In this document: positions 9,287 through 40,847 of the stretch, one piece after another
Layout of the letters: each line of letters starts with the position of its first letter
How positions within the stretch are numbered: position 1 is the first letter of the stretch
Assembly: GCA_900551455.1 (NCBI GenBank)
Contig: URVV01000006.1
Span: 2,055 to 66,054 of the forward strand
Direction of reading: 5' to 3'
DNA: 64,000 nt
From: an uncultured Mycoplasmatota bacterium
GTDB taxonomy: Bacteria; Bacillota_I; Bacilli_A; RF39; UBA660
Program-made: the position numbers and the translations under genes
The notes under the pieces: generated by a model
Told to the model about the DNA's origin: nothing
The model's database searches: none
Seen by the model: the letters and a program-made list of their open reading frames with translations, nothing else

Positions 9287-9994
9287 TTACATTTCATCTT
9301 GTTCTTCTTCTAATTTAGTTGAAGATAATTTTTTATATTCATAATTTTTAATAGAATACTCTTTAATTAGATTGTCTAGTAATTTTTCAATTAAGTCATC
9401 TTTATCTTGGGTTATTTTTATGTTTAGAGTTATTACTTTTTCATTAACTTTATAACTAAGTTTTTCAATGTTATTTTCTTTCTTGATGAAGTTATTTATG
9501 AATGTGTTAATTTTATCAAGATCTTTTTCAGAAGTTATTTTAATAGAAAATGTTTCACTGGTATTTTTTCTTTCAGTTTGACAGTTAATTACTTCGTTTA
9601 CATATCTTAATACGATATTGGCAAATAAGACAAAGATTGTTGAAACGATGGCTTCTTTAATAAAGCCTCCAGCACATAGCATTCCTAAAGCGGCATCGCA
9701 CCATAAGGTAGCAGCAGTGGTTAATCCTCTTATAATGTTTTTTTCATTATCTTTAATAATTACTCCGGCACCGAAGAAGCCAATGCCAGTTACTACTTGA
9801 GCTGCTACTCGGGTAATATCAAAATCTTGATTATTAATTAGAAATGAAAAACTGACAAACATATAAGAACCAAGGGCTACTAGAATCATTGTTCTTAATC
9901 CTAAGGATCTTCTTCTTATTTGTCTTTCTATTCCTAAGACGAAGCTAAGTAGAAAACATAAAAGCATTCCTAGTATAAAGGTATTAAAATTCAT
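9287..9994 (-). CDS. mgtC: MgtC/SapB family membrane protein
   Basis: 235 aa; conserved MgtC N-terminal membrane domain (LGIERQ...RRSLGLRT...AAQVVTGIGFFGAGVI) plus C-terminal soluble domain. Confidence 0.75.
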   Translation of the reverse strand: MNFNTFILGMLLCFLLSFVLGIERQIRRRSLGLRTMILVALGSYMFVSFSFLINNQDFDITRVAAQVVTGIGFFGAGVIIKDNEKNIIRGLTTAATLWCDAALGMLCAGGFIKEAIVSTIFVLFANIVLRYVNEVINCQTERKNTSETFSIKITSEKDLDKINTFINNFIKKENNIEKLSYKVNEKVITLNIKITQDKDDLIEKLLDNLIKEYSIKNYEYKKLSSTKLEEEQDEM

Positions 9995-10147
9995 ATTGTT
10001 ACTTCCTTTCTATATTACTATAATTATTATATAATAAATTTTGAAATTTAACAAGATAACAGTTTATATTTGGATTATGGGCTAAATTAAGGAACAGATA
10101 ACCTTGAATTGAGTAAACTATAATAGATACGAAAAGGAGGTATCATT

Positions 10148-10369
10148 ATGTATTATTATGGAGGATACTCACAAGGCGGTAGTAGTTGTGGTTGCAGTGG
10201 AGCAAATTCTTATCAAAATAGTTATGCTTACCCATCTTACGGTGGATACGGATATGGTGGGTATGGATATGGCAGTGGATATGGATATGGTTCCGGAGCT
10301 GCTATTGTATTAGTTTTATTTATTCTATTGGTTATTATTATTGGAACTCGTACATTTGTAACAGCATAA
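10148..10369 (+). CDS. Gly/Tyr-rich low-complexity mini-protein with C-terminal hydrophobic helix
   Basis: 73 aa; (YGG/GYG) repeats, C-terminal AAIVLVLFILLVIIIG; RBS AAAGGAGG 7 nt upstream; own terminator. Confidence 0.5.
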   Translation: MYYYGGYSQGGSSCGCSGANSYQNSYAYPSYGGYGYGGYGYGSGYGYGSGAAIVLVLFILLVIIIGTRTFVTA

Positions 10370-10391
10370 ATTTAATAACTATATCTAATTT

Positions 10392-10417
10392 AAGGGAAGA
10401 ACTTCCCTTTTTTTTCA
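10392..10417 (+). terminator. Rho-independent terminator
   Basis: AAGGGAAG-aa-CTTCCCTT hairpin followed by TTTTTTTT. Confidence 0.75.
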
Positions 10418-10453
10418 TTTTGTGATAGAATACTTGCAAGAAGGAGTGATATT

Positions 10454-11002
10454 ATGCTTAAGACTTCTGATATATTAGATGAAAAGGATAAACATTTAAG
10501 AGCAAAGAATAAAGATGTTACTTTTCCATTATCAAATGATAAAAAGAAAATAATTGATGATATGTTGGAACATTTATATTATTCACAAATTGAAGAATAT
10601 GCGGATAAATATAATTTACGTCCAGGAATGGGATTGGCGGCGCCACAAATTGGAATTAATGAAAATTTCTTTGTGGTTTGTCACGAAGAATCGGAGAATA
10701 ATTTTAAAAATTATGTTTTGATTAATCCGAAAATGGTATCTCATTCTGAAGAGATGATTTATGTTTCTGAGGGAGAGGGCTGTCTTAGTGTTAATCGAGA
10801 GGTAGAAGGAATTGTTCCAAGGTATGCAAGAGTTACTTTTGTTGGACAGGATGTAGATGGTAATCCAATTAAATTACGTGCTAGAGAGGAATTATCTATT
10901 GCTTTTCAACACGAGTTGGATCATTTAAACGGAATTTTATTCTTTGATCATATTGATCCTAAGGATCCTTATAAAAATAAAGATTATATGCGTGAAATAT
11001 AA
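10454..11002 (+). CDS. def: Peptide deformylase
   Basis: GMGLAAPQIG, EGCLSV, QHELDHLNG motifs; 182 aa; extended -10 (TGTGATAGAAT) promoter upstream. Confidence 0.9.
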   Translation: MLKTSDILDEKDKHLRAKNKDVTFPLSNDKKKIIDDMLEHLYYSQIEEYADKYNLRPGMGLAAPQIGINENFFVVCHEESENNFKNYVLINPKMVSHSEEMIYVSEGEGCLSVNREVEGIVPRYARVTFVGQDVDGNPIKLRAREELSIAFQHELDHLNGILFFDHIDPKDPYKNKDYMREI

Positions 11003-11009
11003 TCTTTTT

Positions 11010-11579
11010 TTATTGGCAAATATTTTCTTTTAATTCTTTAGAGCCAAGATATACTTTTTTACTATTATTTATAGTACAAGTAAGTATTCTAAAGTTATTA
11101 TCGGGGTATTCATATAGAGTATAATTATTGTCTTTTTTTATAATATTCATTTTGTTTGTAAGATCTTCAGGGGTAATGGTTTTACTTAGAAGAAGTTTAC
11201 TTAGTTCTTCTTCGTTAATAGTTATTTTATTACTTCCTAGATAATATAGACTATATTCTGTATCTTGGTTAATATTAATTAGGCCTTTTAAATGGATTAG
11301 ATTATCATTATCTGAGATTACTTTTATGTTGATGTTATTTAGATCAATTGCTTGATTAGTAATATTAGGACAGTTATATTTAGTGAATTTACTTTTTATT
11401 ATTACTTTTTTATATCCAGGGCAGGTGTATACGTTATAGATAAGTCCTGTATATTGGTTATTGTCTTTTTTTAGATATAGAAAGGGAGTGTGTTTTAGGT
11501 AAATATGGGTAAAATCAAGTATTATTAGAAAGAAAATAATTAGAACAATTAAGATAATAATATTTGTGATTTTTTTCAT
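11010..11579 (-). CDS. Hypothetical membrane-anchored protein
   Basis: ORF 11010..11597; likely start MKKITNIIILIVLIIFFLIIL (signal anchor). Confidence 0.35.
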   Translation of the reverse strand: MKKITNIIILIVLIIFFLIILDFTHIYLKHTPFLYLKKDNNQYTGLIYNVYTCPGYKKVIIKSKFTKYNCPNITNQAIDLNNINIKVISDNDNLIHLKGLININQDTEYSLYYLGSNKITINEEELSKLLLSKTITPEDLTNKMNIIKKDNNYTLYEYPDNNFRILTCTINNSKKVYLGSKELKENICQ

Positions 11580-11704
11580 TTTATCACCTACTTTCATATA
11601 TATCGTAGCATCTTATAGAATAATTGTAAATAGTTTGTTTTTCTATTAGTTCTACTCACACTTTTAGTTGTTTTAAATATACTATTAATGAAAGGTTGTG
11701 AATT

Positions 11705-11890
11705 ATGTACCCTATTAGAAATAGAATGCCTATGCCTACGGGAGATCGTTTTATTGGGGGAGGATTTTTGGGACCATTTATTCTTGGGGGAATTACTGGT
11801 GGTTTATTAGCTCCATCATTTTATCCAAGACCATATCCTTATCCAGTAGTGCCTTATCCATACCCTTACCCATCATATCCAATTTATTAA
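11705..11890 (+). CDS. Pro/Tyr/Gly-rich low-complexity mini-protein (PYPYP repeats)
   Basis: 61 aa; GGGFLGPFILGGITGG then PYPYPVVPYPYPYPSYPIY; weak RBS AAAGG. Confidence 0.4.
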   Translation: MYPIRNRMPMPTGDRFIGGGFLGPFILGGITGGLLAPSFYPRPYPYPVVPYPYPYPSYPIY

Positions 11891-11952
11891 TTTTTTGGTT
11901 AATTTTCTAACACATTTTTTAAATATATGCTATAATTATATTAGGTGAAAAT

Positions 11953-12477
11953 ATGAAAAGTAGTTACATAATTGATTATATTAATGAAAATGAGTTTAGA
12001 AAAAAAGAGCGTGCCATAAAGAAATACAATATGTTAGCATATAAGAAACTATTATTTGATTATTATCCTAGTTTGAGAGAGGGTGTTTTTCAAGGAGTAG
12101 TTGTTTCTACGAATGATAAAGATCAGATTGATAAATATGAATTAACTCTTCCTACGGATAAGACTTTTACAATGGTACACGGCCCTATTACTTTACATTA
12201 TAGTGTTTATAAGAATCAAAAGACTGTTATGTTAGAAACTCTCACCCCAGAAGATATTTTAACTGAAGGTCATCAAAAAGAATTAACTACTTATAAAGGG
12301 GTTATGGTATCAAAGTCTCACAAAGATTTGGATATGTTTAAGATTAATCTTCTTAATAGTATGAATAAGAATGGATTCTTTAGTATTAAAGATTTACCTC
12401 TTTGGTTATATATTGTTTTAACTGTTGGTTTTATTGCTTTGGTAGCTTTAATAACGGCAAAGATTTTTATTGGATAG
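11953..12477 (+). CDS. Hypothetical tail-anchored protein
   Basis: 174 aa; C-terminal TM LWLYIVLTVGFIALVALITAKIFI. Confidence 0.4.
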   Translation: MKSSYIIDYINENEFRKKERAIKKYNMLAYKKLLFDYYPSLREGVFQGVVVSTNDKDQIDKYELTLPTDKTFTMVHGPITLHYSVYKNQKTVMLETLTPEDILTEGHQKELTTYKGVMVSKSHKDLDMFKINLLNSMNKNGFFSIKDLPLWLYIVLTVGFIALVALITAKIFIG

Positions 12478-12515: not shown

Positions 12516-12526
12516 TGTGGTAGAAT
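12516..12526 (+). promoter_or_regulatory. Extended -10 promoter element (TGGTAGAAT)
   Basis: TGn-TAGAAT ~25 nt upstream of the RBS/ATG at 12552. Confidence 0.4.
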
Positions 12527-12551
12527 ATTCTGTCAAGAAAGAAGGAATTAT

Positions 12552-13167
12552 TATGTCATATGAAGATTATTGTGCTGCTTGTACTTATTTAAGTGAATGC
12601 GCTGATTATAATGGAACCTATTATTGCGATAGAAAGAATGAGAGAAGAATGGCGTGTGATGCGAAATGTTATAGTTTTTGTGAGGCTTATAGTAGAAGTA
12701 ATTATTCAAGAGAGAATATGTTTGAAAATTCTAGGGGGCATCAAAGTAGTGGTTGTTATTTAACAACAATGATGTGTGAAATATTAAATTATTCAGATAA
12801 TAATTATTATTTACAGACTTTAAGAAACTTTAGAGATAATGTTATGAAAAGAGATATGAAATATTTTCCTTTATTATATACTTATGATATGGTGGGGCCA
12901 ACTATTGCTAATAGATTAAGAAGTGATCCTAATAAGGAAGAAATAGCTAAGATGTTTTTTACTAATTATATTGAAAAGAGTGTTTTATCTATTGAAGAAG
13001 GAAAAATAAATACAGCAATTAATATTTATATGGCTATGACTTTAGCATTGGCTAATCATTATGATTATCCTTTACCTATTAATATTACAGAGATTGAAAA
13101 TGTTGATTTTAGGACATTAGGACATGGCTATGTTAGACAAAGAAAAAAACCAGTTGTTAATCAATAA
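12552..13167 (+). CDS. Cys-rich hypothetical protein (12 Cys in first 90 aa)
   Basis: Start moved to ATG 12552 (MSYEDYCAACTYL), which follows RBS AAGGAA and lies downstream of the promoter/terminator; the longer track ORF start at 12517 would sit inside the promoter. Confidence 0.45.
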
Positions 13168-28830: not shown

Positions 28831-29355
28831 TTATTTTATGATCTCTTCATTGATATAATTTTCATTAATTTTATCGATGCTTTTATCTTCTTCGCTATCT
28901 AAGTTATCCCAAGTTTCTTCTTCATCAACGGATGAAATTTTTACTTTAGTGTCACCGATTATTTCAAGTCCAAGTTCTTTTTCTATTTCTAGATTAATAT
29001 TGGTACCATCAGATTTTGCTGAGATGCAAGTTGGTTGTTTTAAACTTCTTACAATTATATCTTTGTTAACGATATCTTTGTTAGAAGTTGACATTTTTTC
29101 TTCTTCAGTATAGGTTATTTTTTTTGTTATAACAGCGGTTTTTGTATCTGAATCATATGAATACCAGATATTTGCATCAAAACTACCATTTATTAGAATT
29201 TTTCCATTATCTTCCCTAGCAGAAAAATTATGGTTAATGATCCAGCAACCTAAGATGGTGGTAGGAACTTGTTCTACGGTTATTTGATAGGAATTACGAT
29301 ATTTTTTCTTTCCTTTTCCAATGACGGCTTTGGTAACTATCTCTTTGTATGCCAT
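28831..29355 (-). CDS. cotE: Spore coat morphogenetic protein CotE homologue
   Basis: Blockwise similarity to B. subtilis CotE recalled from memory: YKEIVTKAV.GKG, ILGCWIINH, ANIWYSYDSDTKT.V, LKQPTC, acidic C-terminus; likely start MAYKEIV. Confidence 0.6.
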   Translation of the reverse strand: MAYKEIVTKAVIGKGKKKYRNSYQITVEQVPTTILGCWIINHNFSAREDNGKILINGSFDANIWYSYDSDTKTAVITKKITYTEEEKMSTSNKDIVNKDIIVRSLKQPTCISAKSDGTNINLEIEKELGLEIIGDTKVKISSVDEEETWDNLDSEEDKSIDKINENYINEEIIK

Positions 29356-29406
29356 TATATCACTCCTCACTTTAAGATATGCTAAAATAATAAAAAAAGC
29401 ACTTTT

Positions 29407-35217: not shown

Positions 35218-35382
35218 TTATTTTACGGGACAATATGTTTTGGTTACGAATCTTCTTATGGCACTGCCAACATATTTTCCTAAATTATAAACTGTATTTA
35301 TAGCTTTTGATATGGCGTTAATCCAAGAAGATGTGATGGCTCCGCCAGTTATTTCAGTCATTTGTTTTTGCTTTAGTTCCAT
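35218..35382 (-). CDS. Bacteriocin precursor peptide B with double-glycine leader (54 aa): MELKQKQMTEITGG / AITSSWINAISKAINTVYNLGKYVGSAIRRFVTKTYCPVK
   Basis: Hand-translated; ATG at 35380-35382 with RBS AAAGGAAG; 14-aa GG leader; cationic 40-aa mature peptide with AxxxA/GxxxG motifs; below 60-aa ORF-track cutoff. Confidence 0.75.
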   Translation of the reverse strand: MELKQKQMTEITGGAITSSWINAISKAINTVYNLGKYVGSAIRRFVTKTYCPVK

Positions 35383-35399
35383 ATTTTTACTTCCTTTCT

Positions 35400-35537
35400 T
35401 TAATTACGACAGCGACTTGGATTGGTATAACCGCTAAACAAACCGATTAAAAATACTATTGCTGAGGCAATACCGCTAACTAAACGCCAAGATACGCCAC
35501 CGGGGACTTCAGTCATTTGTTTTTCATTTAATTCCAT
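35400..35537 (-). CDS. Bacteriocin precursor peptide A with double-glycine leader (45 aa): MELNEKQMTEVPGG / VSWRLVSGIASAIVFLIGLFSGYTNPSRCRN
   Basis: Hand-translated; ATG at 35535-35537 with RBS AAAGGAG overlapping upstream stop; GG leader near-identical to peptide B; hydrophobic GxxxS/GxxxG mature peptide. Confidence 0.75.
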   Translation of the reverse strand: MELNEKQMTEVPGGVSWRLVSGIASAIVFLIGLFSGYTNPSRCRN

Positions 35538-35548
35538 TAATTTCTCCT

Positions 35549-35968
35549 TTACAGATATTCTTTTAAATATTTAACTAGAGTTTTATTTTCTTTGACTATT
35601 TTTATTTCATAAACATTGTTATTAATACTTTTTAGATTGGAAATATTTAAATAAATATAAGTATAACTGTTACCAGATTCATCGAGATATGTATGATCAT
35701 CAATATGATTTACTTGATACCGATATTCTTGATTATTAAGTAATAAGGTGTTATTATTTATAAAATATTTTAAATAGTTAGATTTTGTTACAACTATTAA
35801 TTCATTATCTTTATACTTTCCTTCTGTTAAGTAATATGATTGATATTTATAGGTAAAAATAACATACAGGAAGATAATAATTATTATTAGAATAATTAAA
35901 CTAATATTATATATTTTAGGATATTTATTCCTTTTTAAAATTATTTCTATATCGAGAATGTCATTCAT
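35549..35968 (-). CDS. Small bitopic membrane protein in bacteriocin operon (candidate truncated accessory or immunity protein)
   Basis: 139 aa; one N-terminal TM (ISLIILIIIIIFLYVIF), Tyr/Asn-rich ectodomain; ATGAATGA-type overlap with the transporter gene. Confidence 0.45.
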   Translation of the reverse strand: MNDILDIEIILKRNKYPKIYNISLIILIIIIIFLYVIFTYKYQSYYLTEGKYKDNELIVVTKSNYLKYFINNNTLLLNNQEYRYQVNHIDDHTYLDESGNSYTYIYLNISNLKSINNNVYEIKIVKENKTLVKYLKEYL

Positions 35969-38033
35969 TATAGGTTAAGATACTCCTTTTACTTAGGTTG
36001 ATAACTTTAGTATATAAATCCATATTGTCTAGTCGATGGGAAATAATGATAATAGTTTTATGTTGATAGTTGTCAAAGATGTTTTTTAAAATTTTCCTTT
36101 CAAGGTTTATGTCTATTTCATTTAGACCTTCATCTATTAAGATATATGAAGATTCTTTTAATAAGGCCCTAGCTAAAATAATACGTTGTCTTTGTCCACC
36201 AGATAAATTTACACCATTTTCCTCTAAGGGATAATTATATGAGAGTAAATTATCTTTAACTAAATCGTCTACATATGTTATTTTACAAACTTTTAAAAAT
36301 TCTTCTTCAGAGATGTTTCTTGATAAAGTTATATTATTTCTAATAGTATCTGTATATAATAATTCATTTTGTGATAAATAAGTAAATTTTGTTCTAATAT
36401 CTTTTATAGTTAAATCATTTATATCATAATTATTAAGATATACTTTGTCTCTTGACACAGGATAATATTTAAATAATATCTTTAATAGGGATGATTTTCC
36501 ACTACCAGAAGGACCTAATATCAAGACTTTTTCAGCTTTTTTTATTTCTAACGATAAATTCTTAAAGACCATATGTTTTTGATTATAACTAAATGATAAA
36601 TTGTTTATTTTTATAGTGCCATAAACATTTAAATTACTTAGCTTGTCTAGCTCATCATATTTATAATTTAAAATTGTATTAATTCTTTTTATACTGTTTT
36701 TGGCATAAAAGAATTCTTGGTAAAAATCAAAAACTTGGCTAAGAGGATTTATAAAGTAAGATAACAATGTATTATAGGTAAGTATACTACCAATAGTGAA
36801 TGATTTATCCATTATATAAGTTGTTCCTAAATAAGTTATAAATAATATTAAAAGACTACTTACTATGTTTTTTAGAAATTCTTCAGATATTGATAACTTT
36901 GATAATGATAAATTATCATTAATATAATTTAGGTATTTATAATTAATTTTCTTGGTAAAATTAGACTCTAGATTTAAACCCTTTATAGTTTCATAACTAC
37001 TTATGGTTTCAGTTAAGAATGAATTTACCTTGGCACCACTTTCTTGAATAGTATCAGTATATCTTTTAATACTATTTTTGTAAGCCAAGAAAATTAAGAG
37101 GTAGATGAATGCTAATAATAATACAATATAAGTTAATTCTTTATTAATGATAAAGAGAATTATTAAGGTAAAAATTGCTAGAATGCTATCTAGAAAGATA
37201 GTTATTATTATTTTAGAAATAACATTCTTTATATAGAATAAATCATTAATACGTGAGATTACTTCTCCTGTCGACTTATTTTTGTAATAACTATATGGAA
37301 GGGAGACTATTTTGTTAATTGTGGTAGTTATAATGGATAAATCTATTTTTTGATTTAAATATAGTAAGAGATTATTTCTTAAAAATTCACTAACTTCTTT
37401 AATGAATAAAATGAAGATAAAAATTATTAAAACAATTACTAGATTTAGTTTGTTAGTATAGATAATTTTATCAATTATTACTTTAAAGTGATAACTATAT
37501 ATACATGTAAAAATAGTTGCTATTAAAGTAAGAAGAATCAATTTAATTATTATTTTTTTATTATTTTTGATAGTATTAACTATAACATTAAGAAGATAAT
37601 TATTTTCACTATAAGTTGGTAATTTTTTATATGGTTCTAGTAAGAGGATATTTCCTGTAAATAGAGTATTAAATTCATTAATAGACATAGATACCATTCC
37701 TTTAGCTGGATCCATTATAGTAATTTTATTATTCTTTATTTTGTATACTACAACAAAGTGATAATAATTATTAATTACTATTTGACTAATGAAGGGAGTT
37801 ATATCTGGGGATAATGATGTAATGTTATCTATTTTATATCCTTTGGAAGTTAAGCCAATTTCTTTGGCTGCTAGAGATAAATTATAAAATGTTGTACCTT
37901 CTTTAGTGGTGCTTGTTAGTTCTAATAAACGTTCTTTAGAAATATTTCCTCCATAATACTTAATGATGGACAAAAGACAGGCACTACCACACTCTTTTAT
38001 ACCTTCTTGTAATACGGTATATTTTTTTGTCAC
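35961..38033 (-). CDS. Bacteriocin-processing ABC transporter with N-terminal C39 peptidase domain (LagD/ComA/SunT family)
   Basis: 690 aa; C39 Cys motif QEGIKECGSACLLSI, His (YHFVVVY) and Asp; 6 TM; Walker A LGPSGSGKSS, signature LSGGQRQR, Walker B ILIDE; GTG start at 38033-38031 with RBS GGAGGTGA. Confidence 0.85.
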   Translation of the reverse strand: MTKKYTVLQEGIKECGSACLLSIIKYYGGNISKERLLELTSTTKEGTTFYNLSLAAKEIGLTSKGYKIDNITSLSPDITPFISQIVINNYYHFVVVYKIKNNKITIMDPAKGMVSMSINEFNTLFTGNILLLEPYKKLPTYSENNYLLNVIVNTIKNNKKIIIKLILLTLIATIFTCIYSYHFKVIIDKIIYTNKLNLVIVLIIFIFILFIKEVSEFLRNNLLLYLNQKIDLSIITTTINKIVSLPYSYYKNKSTGEVISRINDLFYIKNVISKIIITIFLDSILAIFTLIILFIINKELTYIVLLLAFIYLLIFLAYKNSIKRYTDTIQESGAKVNSFLTETISSYETIKGLNLESNFTKKINYKYLNYINDNLSLSKLSISEEFLKNIVSSLLILFITYLGTTYIMDKSFTIGSILTYNTLLSYFINPLSQVFDFYQEFFYAKNSIKRINTILNYKYDELDKLSNLNVYGTIKINNLSFSYNQKHMVFKNLSLEIKKAEKVLILGPSGSGKSSLLKILFKYYPVSRDKVYLNNYDINDLTIKDIRTKFTYLSQNELLYTDTIRNNITLSRNISEEEFLKVCKITYVDDLVKDNLLSYNYPLEENGVNLSGGQRQRIILARALLKESSYILIDEGLNEIDINLERKILKNIFDNYQHKTIIIISHRLDNMDLYTKVINLSKRSILTYNE

Positions 38034-39560: not shown

Positions 39561-40847
39561 ATGAAAAATAAATTTATTAAATCAACAATCATATTGATTA
39601 TTGGAGGATGTATTACTAAGATACTGGCAATGGTTATTAAGATATTTTTAACTAGGAGTATTGGAGATGATGGAATTGGCCTTTATATGATGATACTACC
39701 TACTTTTAATCTGTTTATTACTTTGTCGACGATGTCTTTATCTACTTCAATTAGTAAGGTTGTAGCTGAAGGAAAAAATGGAAAGAGAACGGTTTTATCA
39801 CTTGTACCCGTTAGTGTTATTTATAATATTTTTTTGATGTTTTTGTTAATTATATTAACGCCTGTTATTTCTTTGAAATTATTAAATAATAAATTAACAT
39901 ATTATCCTATTATGGGAATTAGTTTTACTTTACCTTTTATATGCATTTCTGGTATTTTAAAAGGATATTTTTATGGTAAGGAAAATATGATGCCTTATGT
40001 TATTTCAAATGTTATTGAACAATTAGTGAGACTTATATTTATTATTTTTCTTATTCCTAAGTTAATGGTTTATGGAATAGGGGTGGCTGCTCTGGGAGTG
40101 GTACTTATTAATATAATTAGTGAGGGAACTTCGATTATTTCTTTAATTTTATTTATTCCTAATAAGAAGATTTGCTTAAGTGATTTAAAGATGGATAAGA
40201 ATATTCTTAAGGATGTTTTAAATGTTTCTTTATCTTCTACAGGAAGTAGGTTAATTGGATCTATTTCTTACTTCTTAGAACCTATTATTCTTACTTATAT
40301 ACTTACTAAAGGGGGATATCAAAATAGTTATATAGTAATGGAATATGGGGTTATTACGGGATATGTTTTTCCCCTTTTATTAATACCGTCATTTTTTACA
40401 ATGGCAATATCAACTTCATTATTGCCAGTAATTTCTAGTAGTTATTCAAGGGGACATTTTAGGTATACGAAAAACAAATTGAAACAAGCAATATGGATTT
40501 CTTTAGGAATTGGATGTTTTTTTACTATAATATTTATGATTTTACCAGGAACACTTCTTAAGTTTATATATAATACGAGTAAAGGGGTTAATTATATTAG
40601 AATTGTAGCACCATTTTTCTTATTACATTATATACAGGGACCTTTAACTTCATATTTACAGGCAGTTGATAGAGCTAAGAATGCTATGATGGGAACTTTG
40701 GTAGGAGCTATTATTAAGAATATTTTGTTATTGATATTACCAATATTTATGGGAATATGGGGGTTTGTTATTGCTAGTTTGATTAATATTTTATATGTTA
40801 CTATTCAACATATTTATTATGCAAAAAAATCTCTTGGTAATACCTAG
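39561..40847 (+). CDS. MOP-superfamily flippase (polysaccharide-biosynthesis/SpoVB/MurJ-like)
   Basis: 428 aa, ~12 TM; family-typical N-terminus (ILAMVIKIFLTRSIGDDGIGLYMMILPTFNLF). Confidence 0.55.
   Translation: MKNKFIKSTIILIIGGCITKILAMVIKIFLTRSIGDDGIGLYMMILPTFNLFITLSTMSLSTSISKVVAEGKNGKRTVLSLVPVSVIYNIFLMFLLIILTPVISLKLLNNKLTYYPIMGISFTLPFICISGILKGYFYGKENMMPYVISNVIEQLVRLIFIIFLIPKLMVYGIGVAALGVVLINIISEGTSIISLILFIPNKKICLSDLKMDKNILKDVLNVSLSSTGSRLIGSISYFLEPIILTYILTKGGYQNSYIVMEYGVITGYVFPLLLIPSFFTMAISTSLLPVISSSYSRGHFRYTKNKLKQAIWISLGIGCFFTIIFMILPGTLLKFIYNTSKGVNYIRIVAPFFLLHYIQGPLTSYLQAVDRAKNAMMGTLVGAIIKNILLLILPIFMGIWGFVIASLINILYVTIQHIYYAKKSLGNT

Follow-up and report, generated by a model that had tools for sequence, protein, structure and literature searches.

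Two small tyrosine-rich open reading frames (ORFs) on either side of def, the peptide deformylase gene, in an uncultured Mycoplasmatota bacterium (contig URVV01000006.1) probably encode sporulation-specific peptides of the spore envelope that are made late in the mother cell, a reading to which we assign a probability of roughly 0.6. The stretch analysed, here called the window, is 64 kb long with a G+C content of ~28%. The first gene, ORF-A, appears to encode a YjcZ-type helix carrying a family-specific N-terminal head, and so to represent a distinct extended subfamily rather than a typical YjcZ member; the second, ORF-B, belongs to an unnamed and very common family. Judged from their upstream regions, a sigma-K-type promoter, as used in the mother cell, is conserved at both genes across dozens of species, and the link to sporulation, as far as sequence comparison can carry it, is well supported. 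What is new here is an extended, def-linked, tyrosine-rich subfamily of YjcZ and an unnamed glycine-zipper family with CotT-like tails, both from uncultured gut Bacilli.

The neighbourhood of ORF-A, def and ORF-B was scanned for elements between positions 9900 and 12600, and both ORFs have exactly the coordinates and translations given in the original prediction from this DNA.

10094..10129, forward strand: putative sigma-K-type promoter of ORF-A, with the -35 AC at 10094-10095, a 16-nt spacer, the -10 element AGTAAACTA at 10112-10120 and then TAATAGATA at 10121-10129
10132-10141, forward strand: near-perfect ribosome-binding site (RBS) of ORF-A, AAAAGGAGGT, read from the sequence and kept in orthologues
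10148..10369, forward strand: ORF-A, coding sequence of 73 residues, protein MYYYGGYSQGGSSCGCSGANSYQNSYAYPSYGGYGYGGYGYGSGYGYGSGAAIVLVLFILLVIIIGTRTFVTA
10392..10417, forward strand: intrinsic terminator of ORF-A, AAGGGAAGAACTTCCCTT (hairpin 10392-10409) plus T-run, the sole terminator-like site in the scanned neighbourhood
10423-10431, forward strand: extended -10 promoter of def, TGaTAGAAT, conserved as TGnTAnAAT downstream of the ORF-A terminator
10454..11002, forward strand: def, between ORF-A and ORF-B (Pfam Pep_deformylase, E 1.7e-41)
11658..11684, forward strand: putative sigma-K-type promoter of ORF-B, with the -35 AC at 11658-11659, a 16-nt spacer and the -10 element AATATACTA at 11676-11684
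11690..11695, forward strand: RBS of ORF-B, GAAAGG, ~6 nt past the -10 element
11705..11890, forward strand: ORF-B, coding sequence of 61 residues, protein MYPIRNRMPMPTGDRFIGGGFLGPFILGGITGGLLAPSFYPRPYPYPVVPYPYPYPSYPIY, ending ...PYPYPVVPYPYPYPSYPIY

Conservation and selection

The original prediction had allowed that the two frames might be chance products of AT-rich repetitive DNA that are not conserved in relatives, a scenario now ruled out by conservation and purifying selection. Counted as clusters at 90% identity, homologues number 337 for ORF-A and 575 for ORF-B, all of them short proteins from metagenomes and metagenome-assembled genomes (MAGs). In a codon-level comparison, the ratio of nonsynonymous to synonymous differences per site (pN/pS) is 0.18 in the helix block of ORF-A, 0.00 in its MYYYG start and 0.16 in the core of ORF-B, with synonymous sites near saturation (pS 0.61-0.97). 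The homologue counts, together with pN/pS of 0.16-0.18, exclude non-coding frames and show that ORF-A and ORF-B are genuine genes under strong purifying selection. The DNA repeat beneath the GY region of ORF-A is just a short array with a 6-nt period (10243-10290), and the number of GY units differs between strains (proteins P0001 and P0002). The strong RBS and strong terminator that had been ascribed to ORF-A are both in place at the positions listed above. A common origin of the two genes was rejected, with an hhalign probability of 0.2%.

Promoters of the sigma-K type

Promoters recognised by sigma-E and sigma-K have a common -10 element and differ at one position of the -35, where C marks sigma-K and T marks sigma-E, and these specificities were expected by the authors to hold across endospore-formers (Eichenberger et al. 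2004, PMC517825). A search upstream of the two genes for sigma-K or sigma-E motifs, proposed together with the original prediction, brought out a conserved signal of the sigma-K type, AC-N16/17-CATAnnnTA, at both. The upstream sets came from ORF-A loci in 64 genomes and ORF-B loci on 80 metagenome contigs, from which 40 ORF-A and 55 ORF-B orthologue upstream regions were aligned. These regions have diverged outside three kept blocks, namely the -35 AC (AACA or tCAC), the -10 (C/A)ATAnnnTA that lies 16-17 nt further on, and the RBS; the consensus is AACA-N16-xATAnnnTA-TAnTAGAt for the ORF-A orthologues and AC..tttt-N-xATAtAATA-ttatGAAAGG for those of ORF-B. The conserved -35 C therefore speaks for sigma-K rather than sigma-E. 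At ORF-B the RBS follows the -10 after only ~6 nt, and the leader must therefore be very short.

The strict motif, defined as AC-N16/17-CATAnnnTA, precedes 15 of the 40 ORF-A orthologues (37%) and 14 of the 55 ORF-B orthologues (25%), compared with 8 of 581 control genes in the same loci (1.4%), and the relaxed motif, in which the first base of the -10 is freed, precedes 27/40, 50/55 and 28/581, respectively, although the upstream sequences are related by descent and the counts are thus not independent trials. As a calibration, we counted the strict motif at all unique ORF upstream regions in the fetched loci and found it at 37 of 894, of which 30 belong to ORF-A or ORF-B. The genes that carry it are as follows.

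ORF-A: 17 of the 37
ORF-B: 13 of the 37
M29 peptidase: 3 of the 37, which share the palindromic -10 of ORF-B from the other strand
recA: 2 of the 37
CotD-like protein of 86 residues: 1 of the 37, locus L067 at 2265, forward strand (PF11122, E 8.7e-4, just under the cut-off)
CotJB-domain protein of 155 residues: 1 of the 37, locus L146 at 3864, forward strand (E 1.9e-21)

Within the 64-kb window, the relaxed motif in combination with an RBS and a start codon occurs just at ORF-A, at ORF-B and at two probably spurious sites. The strict motif may thus help to locate other genes of the mother cell in these lineages.

The same upstream regions bear on a different reading, in which both products would be vegetative peptides of the cell envelope or membrane made under a housekeeping sigma factor, for instance membrane-organising glycine-zipper peptides or stress peptides. 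Such a role would suit the -10 of ORF-B, with its TATACT/TATAAT-like hexamers, weak -35 and 9/12 in the sigma-70 scan, as it would suit the hydrophobic or glycine-zipper helix that each peptide bears, and the spore link of both peptides comes from sequence alone. However, the positions that are conserved are the AC at -35 and the (C/A)ATA with which the -10 begins, and not a TTG or an extended TG, whereas def and the gene for a 174-residue protein next to ORF-B use clearly different, extended -10 promoters. The strict motif also marks the CotD-like and CotJB genes, and the ORF-A family matches YjcZ sporulation models. For ORF-A in particular, a sigma-A promoter was rejected, because its TATAAT-like hexamer is separated from the sole TTGxCA-like hexamers by 12 nt, an impossible spacer. 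We consider a vegetative role for the pair unlikely.

Directly past the -10 of ORF-A (10121-10129, and in the orthologues) lies a conserved TAnTAGAT block that is absent from the ORF-B promoters and could be a start-site region or the binding site of a regulator.

ORF-A as an extended YjcZ-type peptide

The ORF-A protein is rich in glycine (25%) and tyrosine (19%), has a single arginine and contains no lysine, aspartate or glutamate. Residues 1-49 form a Gly/Tyr/Ser/Cys-rich head with an invariant MYYYG start, a CxC motif, YPxY and GY repeats, and residues 50-72 form a hydrophobic YjcZ-type helix, AAIVLVLFILLVIIIG (nt 10295-10363). AlphaFold2 predicts the helix over residues 50-72, with a block-mean predicted local distance difference test score (pLDDT) of 81-91 for residues 51-70, and leaves residues 1-49 disordered (pLDDT <50 for residues 1-40); Kyte-Doolittle hydropathy in a 15-residue window peaks at 3.78 over residues 51-65. 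No signal peptide is present. Across the family (alignment A1), M1-Y2-Y3-Y4-G5, C14 and nearly every position of I53-R68 are invariant, and the GY-repeat region differs in length.

The window protein matches the Pfam model PF09680 (YjcZ_2) at 21.0 bits, equal to the gathering cut-off of 21 (E 2.5e-4), over residues 46-64, a segment that runs from the last part of the Gly-rich stretch into the hydrophobic helix, and it has no match at E <= 1 to the NCBIfam model TIGR01732 (tiny_TM_bacill), the 'YjcZ family sporulation protein'. Among 36 diverse members of the ORF-A family, PF09680 is matched by 33 (best E 3.8e-6) and TIGR01732 by 24 (best E 4.4e-5). In B. subtilis, yjcZ is a member of the sigma-K regulon (PMC517825). 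The core peptide LVLFILLVI, a single and very specific pattern by which absence elsewhere is weakly tested, was also sought across GTDB with one genome for each species and was found solely in gut Bacilli MAGs and in Paenibacillus, Cohnella, Fictibacillus and Longirhabdus; to the extent of this single-pattern scan, the taxa agree with the restriction of YjcZ to endospore-forming Bacillota. The cultured genera carry short YjcZ-like peptides, often in tandem, for example in Fictibacillus, and MGAVGYGAGCAGYGSSAAAILVLFILLVIITSAFVW in Paenibacillus, and typical short members such as MGHGYASGAAIVLVLFILLVIILGAYI are found in some related MAGs, which were not shown to be the same genomes.

ORF-A is like YjcZ in its hydrophobic core, the hallmark of the family, ...G(A/F)A(I/L)(V/I)LVLFILL(V/I)II.G following a Gly-rich stretch, in its putative sigma-K-type promoter and in the presence of the family in endospore-formers. 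It differs in size, with 73 residues (47-79 in the def-linked relatives) against ~27-37 for the tiny short peptides; in an additional Tyr/Gly/Cys head of 25-50 residues (MYYYG, CxC, YPxY), which the short peptides of Fictibacillus and Paenibacillus lack; and in its arrangement, being a single copy fixed upstream of def, in contrast to the tandem paralogue arrays of Paenibacillus and Fictibacillus.

ORF-B and its family

The ORF-B protein has 23% proline, 15% tyrosine and 15% glycine, no lysine and one aspartate. A variable basic N-terminus is followed by the invariant core DRFIGGGFLGPFILGGITGGLLAPSFYPRP and then by a Pro/Tyr tail (nt 11822-11887). A glycine-zipper helix is predicted over the GxxxG-rich core (residues 23-39, nt 11771-11821) with moderate confidence (block-mean pLDDT 74-81 for residues 21-40), and both ends are disordered. 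In the family (alignment A2), the invariant core reads R15...G19-G20-F21..P24-F25.L27-G28-G29..G32.L34.A36-P37.F39..P43, with the N-terminus and the Pro/Tyr tail varying around it. The C-terminus of the relatives is usually Tyr or YYR. A Met-Tyr start occurs in 162 of 240 ORF-B relatives and in 118 of 120 ORF-A relatives (protein sets P0001-P0360).

Searched with a profile, 1.84 billion representative proteins yielded 121 clusters at 50% identity, all of 36-150 residues. The window protein is identical to an NCBI MAG protein annotated 'Mycoplasmatota bacterium' and is present on 209 contigs; among the 120 matches listed, four have a named source, all gut MAGs, and the rest are unnamed metagenome or assembly records. 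No Pfam model matches the window protein at E <= 0.1, and no NCBIfam or PHROGs model matches it; 38 relatives gave no relevant family at E <= 1, the curated glycine-zipper domains of Pfam (e.g. Gly-zipper_Omp, Gly-zipper_YMGG) are matched neither by ORF-B nor by these 38, and the records of the cluster members hold no informative names.

Comparison with known coat proteins

CotT is a small, mother-cell-made, Pro/Tyr/Gly-rich protein of the inner spore coat in B. subtilis and its close relatives. The CotT sequences that we retrieved and aligned (A3) consist nearly throughout of YYPRPRPP-type repeats, followed by GYGGGYGGGY. The tail of ORF-B, FYPRPYPYP..., and the GYGYGGYGYG of ORF-A reproduce these two motif types (YYPRPRP and GYGGGY). 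A D(D/E)R immediately in front of the core in many ORF-B relatives parallels the DERQ that precedes the CotT repeats, and some relatives have longer tails, such as ...FYPRPYYNNYYYPYPYYGPYYR, that are also CotT-like. Profile alignment by hhalign pairs ORF-B with CotT over 11 columns (APaFYPRPyp with QPYYYPRPRPP, probability 51%) and ORF-A with CotT over 10 columns (GYG...GYGGGY, probability 51%). Homology to CotT, sought as a match to DERQPYYYPRPRPPFYPP...PWYGYGGGYGGGY across most of the protein, was rejected, as only low-complexity motifs are matched. CotT has neither the glycine-zipper helix of ORF-B nor the hydrophobic helix of ORF-A, and the motif types that CotT combines are here on two genes. 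The likeness of both ORFs to CotT is thus one of motif and composition, for which homology is not demonstrable.

A second comparator is SscA (YhzE) of B. subtilis, a hydrophobic peptide of 28 residues that is abundantly expressed, is loaded into the inner coat in dependence on SafA and affects the assembly of other coat proteins (PMC13417171). Compared by description only, SscA offers a working model of the way in which peptides such as ORF-A might act, although it has just 28 residues in total and is without a long Tyr-rich head.

The original prediction had likened the two products to CotC, CotU and CotG. These are small, Tyr/Lys/Asp-rich, highly charged, sigma-K-dependent coat components that are believed to be cross-linked. 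ORF-A, with no lysine, aspartate or glutamate, and ORF-B, with no lysine and one aspartate, are unlike them in composition, by which the analogy turns out to be a poor fit (no Lys, at most one acidic residue). What has held of the proposal that the pair are spore-coat or envelope components is the sporulation link, through the YjcZ models, the sigma-K-type promoters and a host with CotE and a SpoVB-like protein; the CotC-like part has not. Better comparators are YjcZ for ORF-A and CotT for both, the latter by motif and composition only.

A model for the two peptides

ORF-A and ORF-B are single-gene units, each transcribed on its own. We propose that both would be expressed late, in the mother cell, from their sigma-K-type promoters, and that both products would be small structural peptides of the developing spore envelope. 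Because ORF-A has a C-terminal helix and no signal peptide, the helix may serve as a tail anchor in the outer forespore membrane or may be buried in a hydrophobic layer of the coat; SscA does the latter in B. subtilis, in dependence on SafA (PMC13417171). The uncharged, disordered head of 49 residues would then lie in the mother-cell cytoplasm and face the assembling coat, where its tyrosines and cysteines could serve in packing or in oxidative cross-linking. The glycine-zipper helix of ORF-B may mediate self-association or insertion into membrane or coat and would present the CotT-like Pro/Tyr tail. That these heads and tails become linked oxidatively through dityrosine or disulfide bonds is chemically plausible, and speculative.

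Several observations weigh against a role of the two peptides in the spore envelope. The timing of expression is taken wholly from the likeness of the promoters to the B. subtilis consensus, and the enrichment counts share the dependence by descent described above. In the window, the -10 elements are degenerate, AGTAAACTA of ORF-A having 4 of the 6 specified bases and AATATACTA of ORF-B 5 of 6, and the latter overlaps a plausible sigma-A hexamer (CTCACA-N17-TATACT, 9/12 in the sigma-70 scan). The window ORF-A barely reaches the Pfam cut-off and misses TIGR01732, placing it at the fringe of the YjcZ family, and we know of no function for YjcZ itself. The resemblance to CotT spans just 10-11 low-complexity columns at 51% probability, and the gene neighbours of ORF-B provide no informative clue to function.

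A far broader scenario can be built on the same data, and we regard it as improbable. ORF-B would found an undescribed, widespread, sigma-K-driven glycine-zipper/Pro-Tyr family and would form, with ORF-A, a two-component, membrane-anchored, cross-linkable basal layer of the coat in a large clade of uncultured gut Bacilli mislabelled as Mycoplasmatota or Tenericutes, and the invariant adjacency to def and the Met-Tyr starts would both stem from a real functional need for deformylase in the mother cell late in sporulation.

Adjacency of ORF-A and def

In ~40 species-level MAG loci, def is the next gene downstream of ORF-A on the same strand, and this order is kept even where the identity of def has fallen to 56% and the other neighbours are different. 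The short YjcZ-like peptides of the MAGs and of Paenibacillus are not adjacent to def, and ORF-B is near ORF-A in the nearest relatives only. An operon of ORF-A and def was rejected: because ORF-A is followed by a terminator in 33 of the 40 orthologous loci and a separate extended -10 (TGnTAnAAT) is conserved for def, the two are separate transcription units.

The constancy of this order, down to the most diverged def genes, and the invariant N-terminus of ORF-A (MYYYG, pN = 0) would fit a functional coupling to def, in which ORF-A would act as a regulatory upstream ORF, or would allow read-through supply of Def in the late mother cell, the peptide itself being secondary. Set against this are the terminator and separate promoter just described, the purifying selection on the ORF-A protein sequence, and the fact that its most conserved part is the C-terminal helix, which it has in common with YjcZ peptides that are not beside def. 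We offer no explanation for the fixed adjacency and keep coupling as a very improbable alternative to a spore-envelope role.

In one locus (L155), the ORF-A slot between the sigma-K-like promoter and the terminator-def unit is occupied by a fusion protein of 110 residues (P0074). Its N-terminus is rich in Pro and Tyr and leads into an ORF-B-like glycine-zipper segment, DQRFIPFVGGALIGGVLGSAYSRPRYY; the ORF-A-like part that comes next, with GY repeat and YjcZ helix, reads YPMYGGYGYG...AAIVLVLFILLVIIIGTRTFITA. This suggests that both modules can work in one polypeptide, an observation of little weight, as it comes from a single 785-bp contig at ~1x coverage.

The host and its lineage

Two further genes of the window relate to sporulation.

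28831..29370, reverse strand: CotE homologue (PF10628, E 8.7e-46)
39561..40847, forward strand: SpoVB-like flippase (TIGR02900, E 2.8e-87, 293 bits, below the equivalog cut-off of 372)

The CotE homologue had been named in the original prediction and is real; upstream of it we read the -10-like element CATATCTTA. The genome also encodes cell-wall functions, with MurC/MurD, a dcw cluster and a penicillin-binding protein (PBP) of the SpoVD/PBP2x type, and the ORF-A-def pair of one relative that is further removed has spoVAC-spoVAD-spoVAEB and a homologue of cotZ beside it. Because of CotE, the SpoVB-like protein, MurD, the dcw cluster and the SpoVD-type PBP, together with spoVA and cotZ in the relative, the host is taken to be a walled endospore-former.

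The relatives' MAGs are labelled Erysipelotrichaceae, Bacilli or Tenericutes. Given the wall and sporulation genes, the Mycoplasmatota/Tenericutes label of source MAGs is misleading (loci L014, L018, L029 and L032, and the source name of P0121). Three ORF-A contigs (L025, L043, L074) are binned as 'uncultured Muribaculaceae', in the Bacteroidota, and are probably mis-binned; two of the three also have def downstream.

A phage origin of either peptide was rejected, PHROGs giving no match, and so was a plasmid origin, as tblastn of the peptides against 72,556 plasmids gave no match, to which the low-complexity filter possibly contributed.

Many gut Firmicutes owe their transmission to sporulation, yet hardly any coat proteins are known from uncultured lineages, since such proteins change rapidly in evolution and annotation tends to miss small ORFs. 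The comparison of promoters used here is a way to recognise late mother-cell genes in MAGs. If the peptides were confirmed in spores, they would be handy markers of sporulation capacity in 'Tenericutes/Mycoplasmatota' MAGs and, like SscA of B. subtilis, could find use as compact anchors in spore display. No concept is overturned, and the relevance is chiefly to research on sporulation and on gut-microbiome transmission.

A bacteriocin-like locus and other neighbours

About 25 kb from the two genes, the window contains a locus that looks like one for a class II, possibly two-peptide, bacteriocin (35218-38033). Two peptides (35218-35382 and 35400-35537, both reverse strand), with double-glycine leaders MELKQKQMTEITGG|AITSSWINAISKAINTVYNLGKYVGSAIRRFVTKTYCPVK and MELNEKQMTEVPGG|VSWRLVSGIASAIVFLIGLFSGYTNPSRCRN, lie with the genes at 35549-35968 and 35961-38033 (both reverse strand), and a C39-peptidase ATP-binding cassette (ABC) transporter is encoded alongside.

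This locus, the small size of ORF-A and ORF-B, and the strongly hydrophobic helix and CxC motif of ORF-A would be in keeping with membrane-active toxic or antimicrobial peptides, either similar to type I toxins or modified or unmodified bacteriocin precursors with Gly/Tyr/Cys-rich cores. Nevertheless, neither peptide has a double-glycine or any other recognisable leader, whereas the genuine bacteriocin peptides of the window look different, with MELxxKQMTExxGG leaders, and in ~100 loci examined no modification enzyme, immunity gene or transporter adjoins either gene. Between 9900 and 12600 no Rfam family was matched at E <= 1 and no antisense RNA feature was found; there were no PADLOC-type or phage matches; and each gene is present as one copy in a conserved chromosomal context beside def. 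A toxic or antimicrobial function of the pair is very unlikely indeed, compared with the spore-envelope role that we favour.

Directly downstream of ORF-B in 20 loci lies its one recurrent partner, a gene of unknown function.

11953..12477, forward strand: protein of 174 residues with a C-terminal membrane anchor

Its promoter, TGcTATAAT, lies at 11907-11936, and the protein matches no Pfam or NCBIfam family. The other neighbours of ORF-B are, by inspection, housekeeping genes that vary among lineages, with products that resemble an RNHCP-type zinc-ribbon protein, a rhomboid protein, an M29 aminopeptidase, Lon, RNase Y and EzrA. A Cys-rich protein (12517-13167, forward strand; probable start MSYEDYCAAC...) with a weak match to the NCBIfam model CFI_box_CTERM (33 bits against a cut-off of 40) is encoded next, and genes for such CFI_box_CTERM-like proteins are recurrent neighbours downstream of the pair formed by ORF-B and the 174-residue protein gene.

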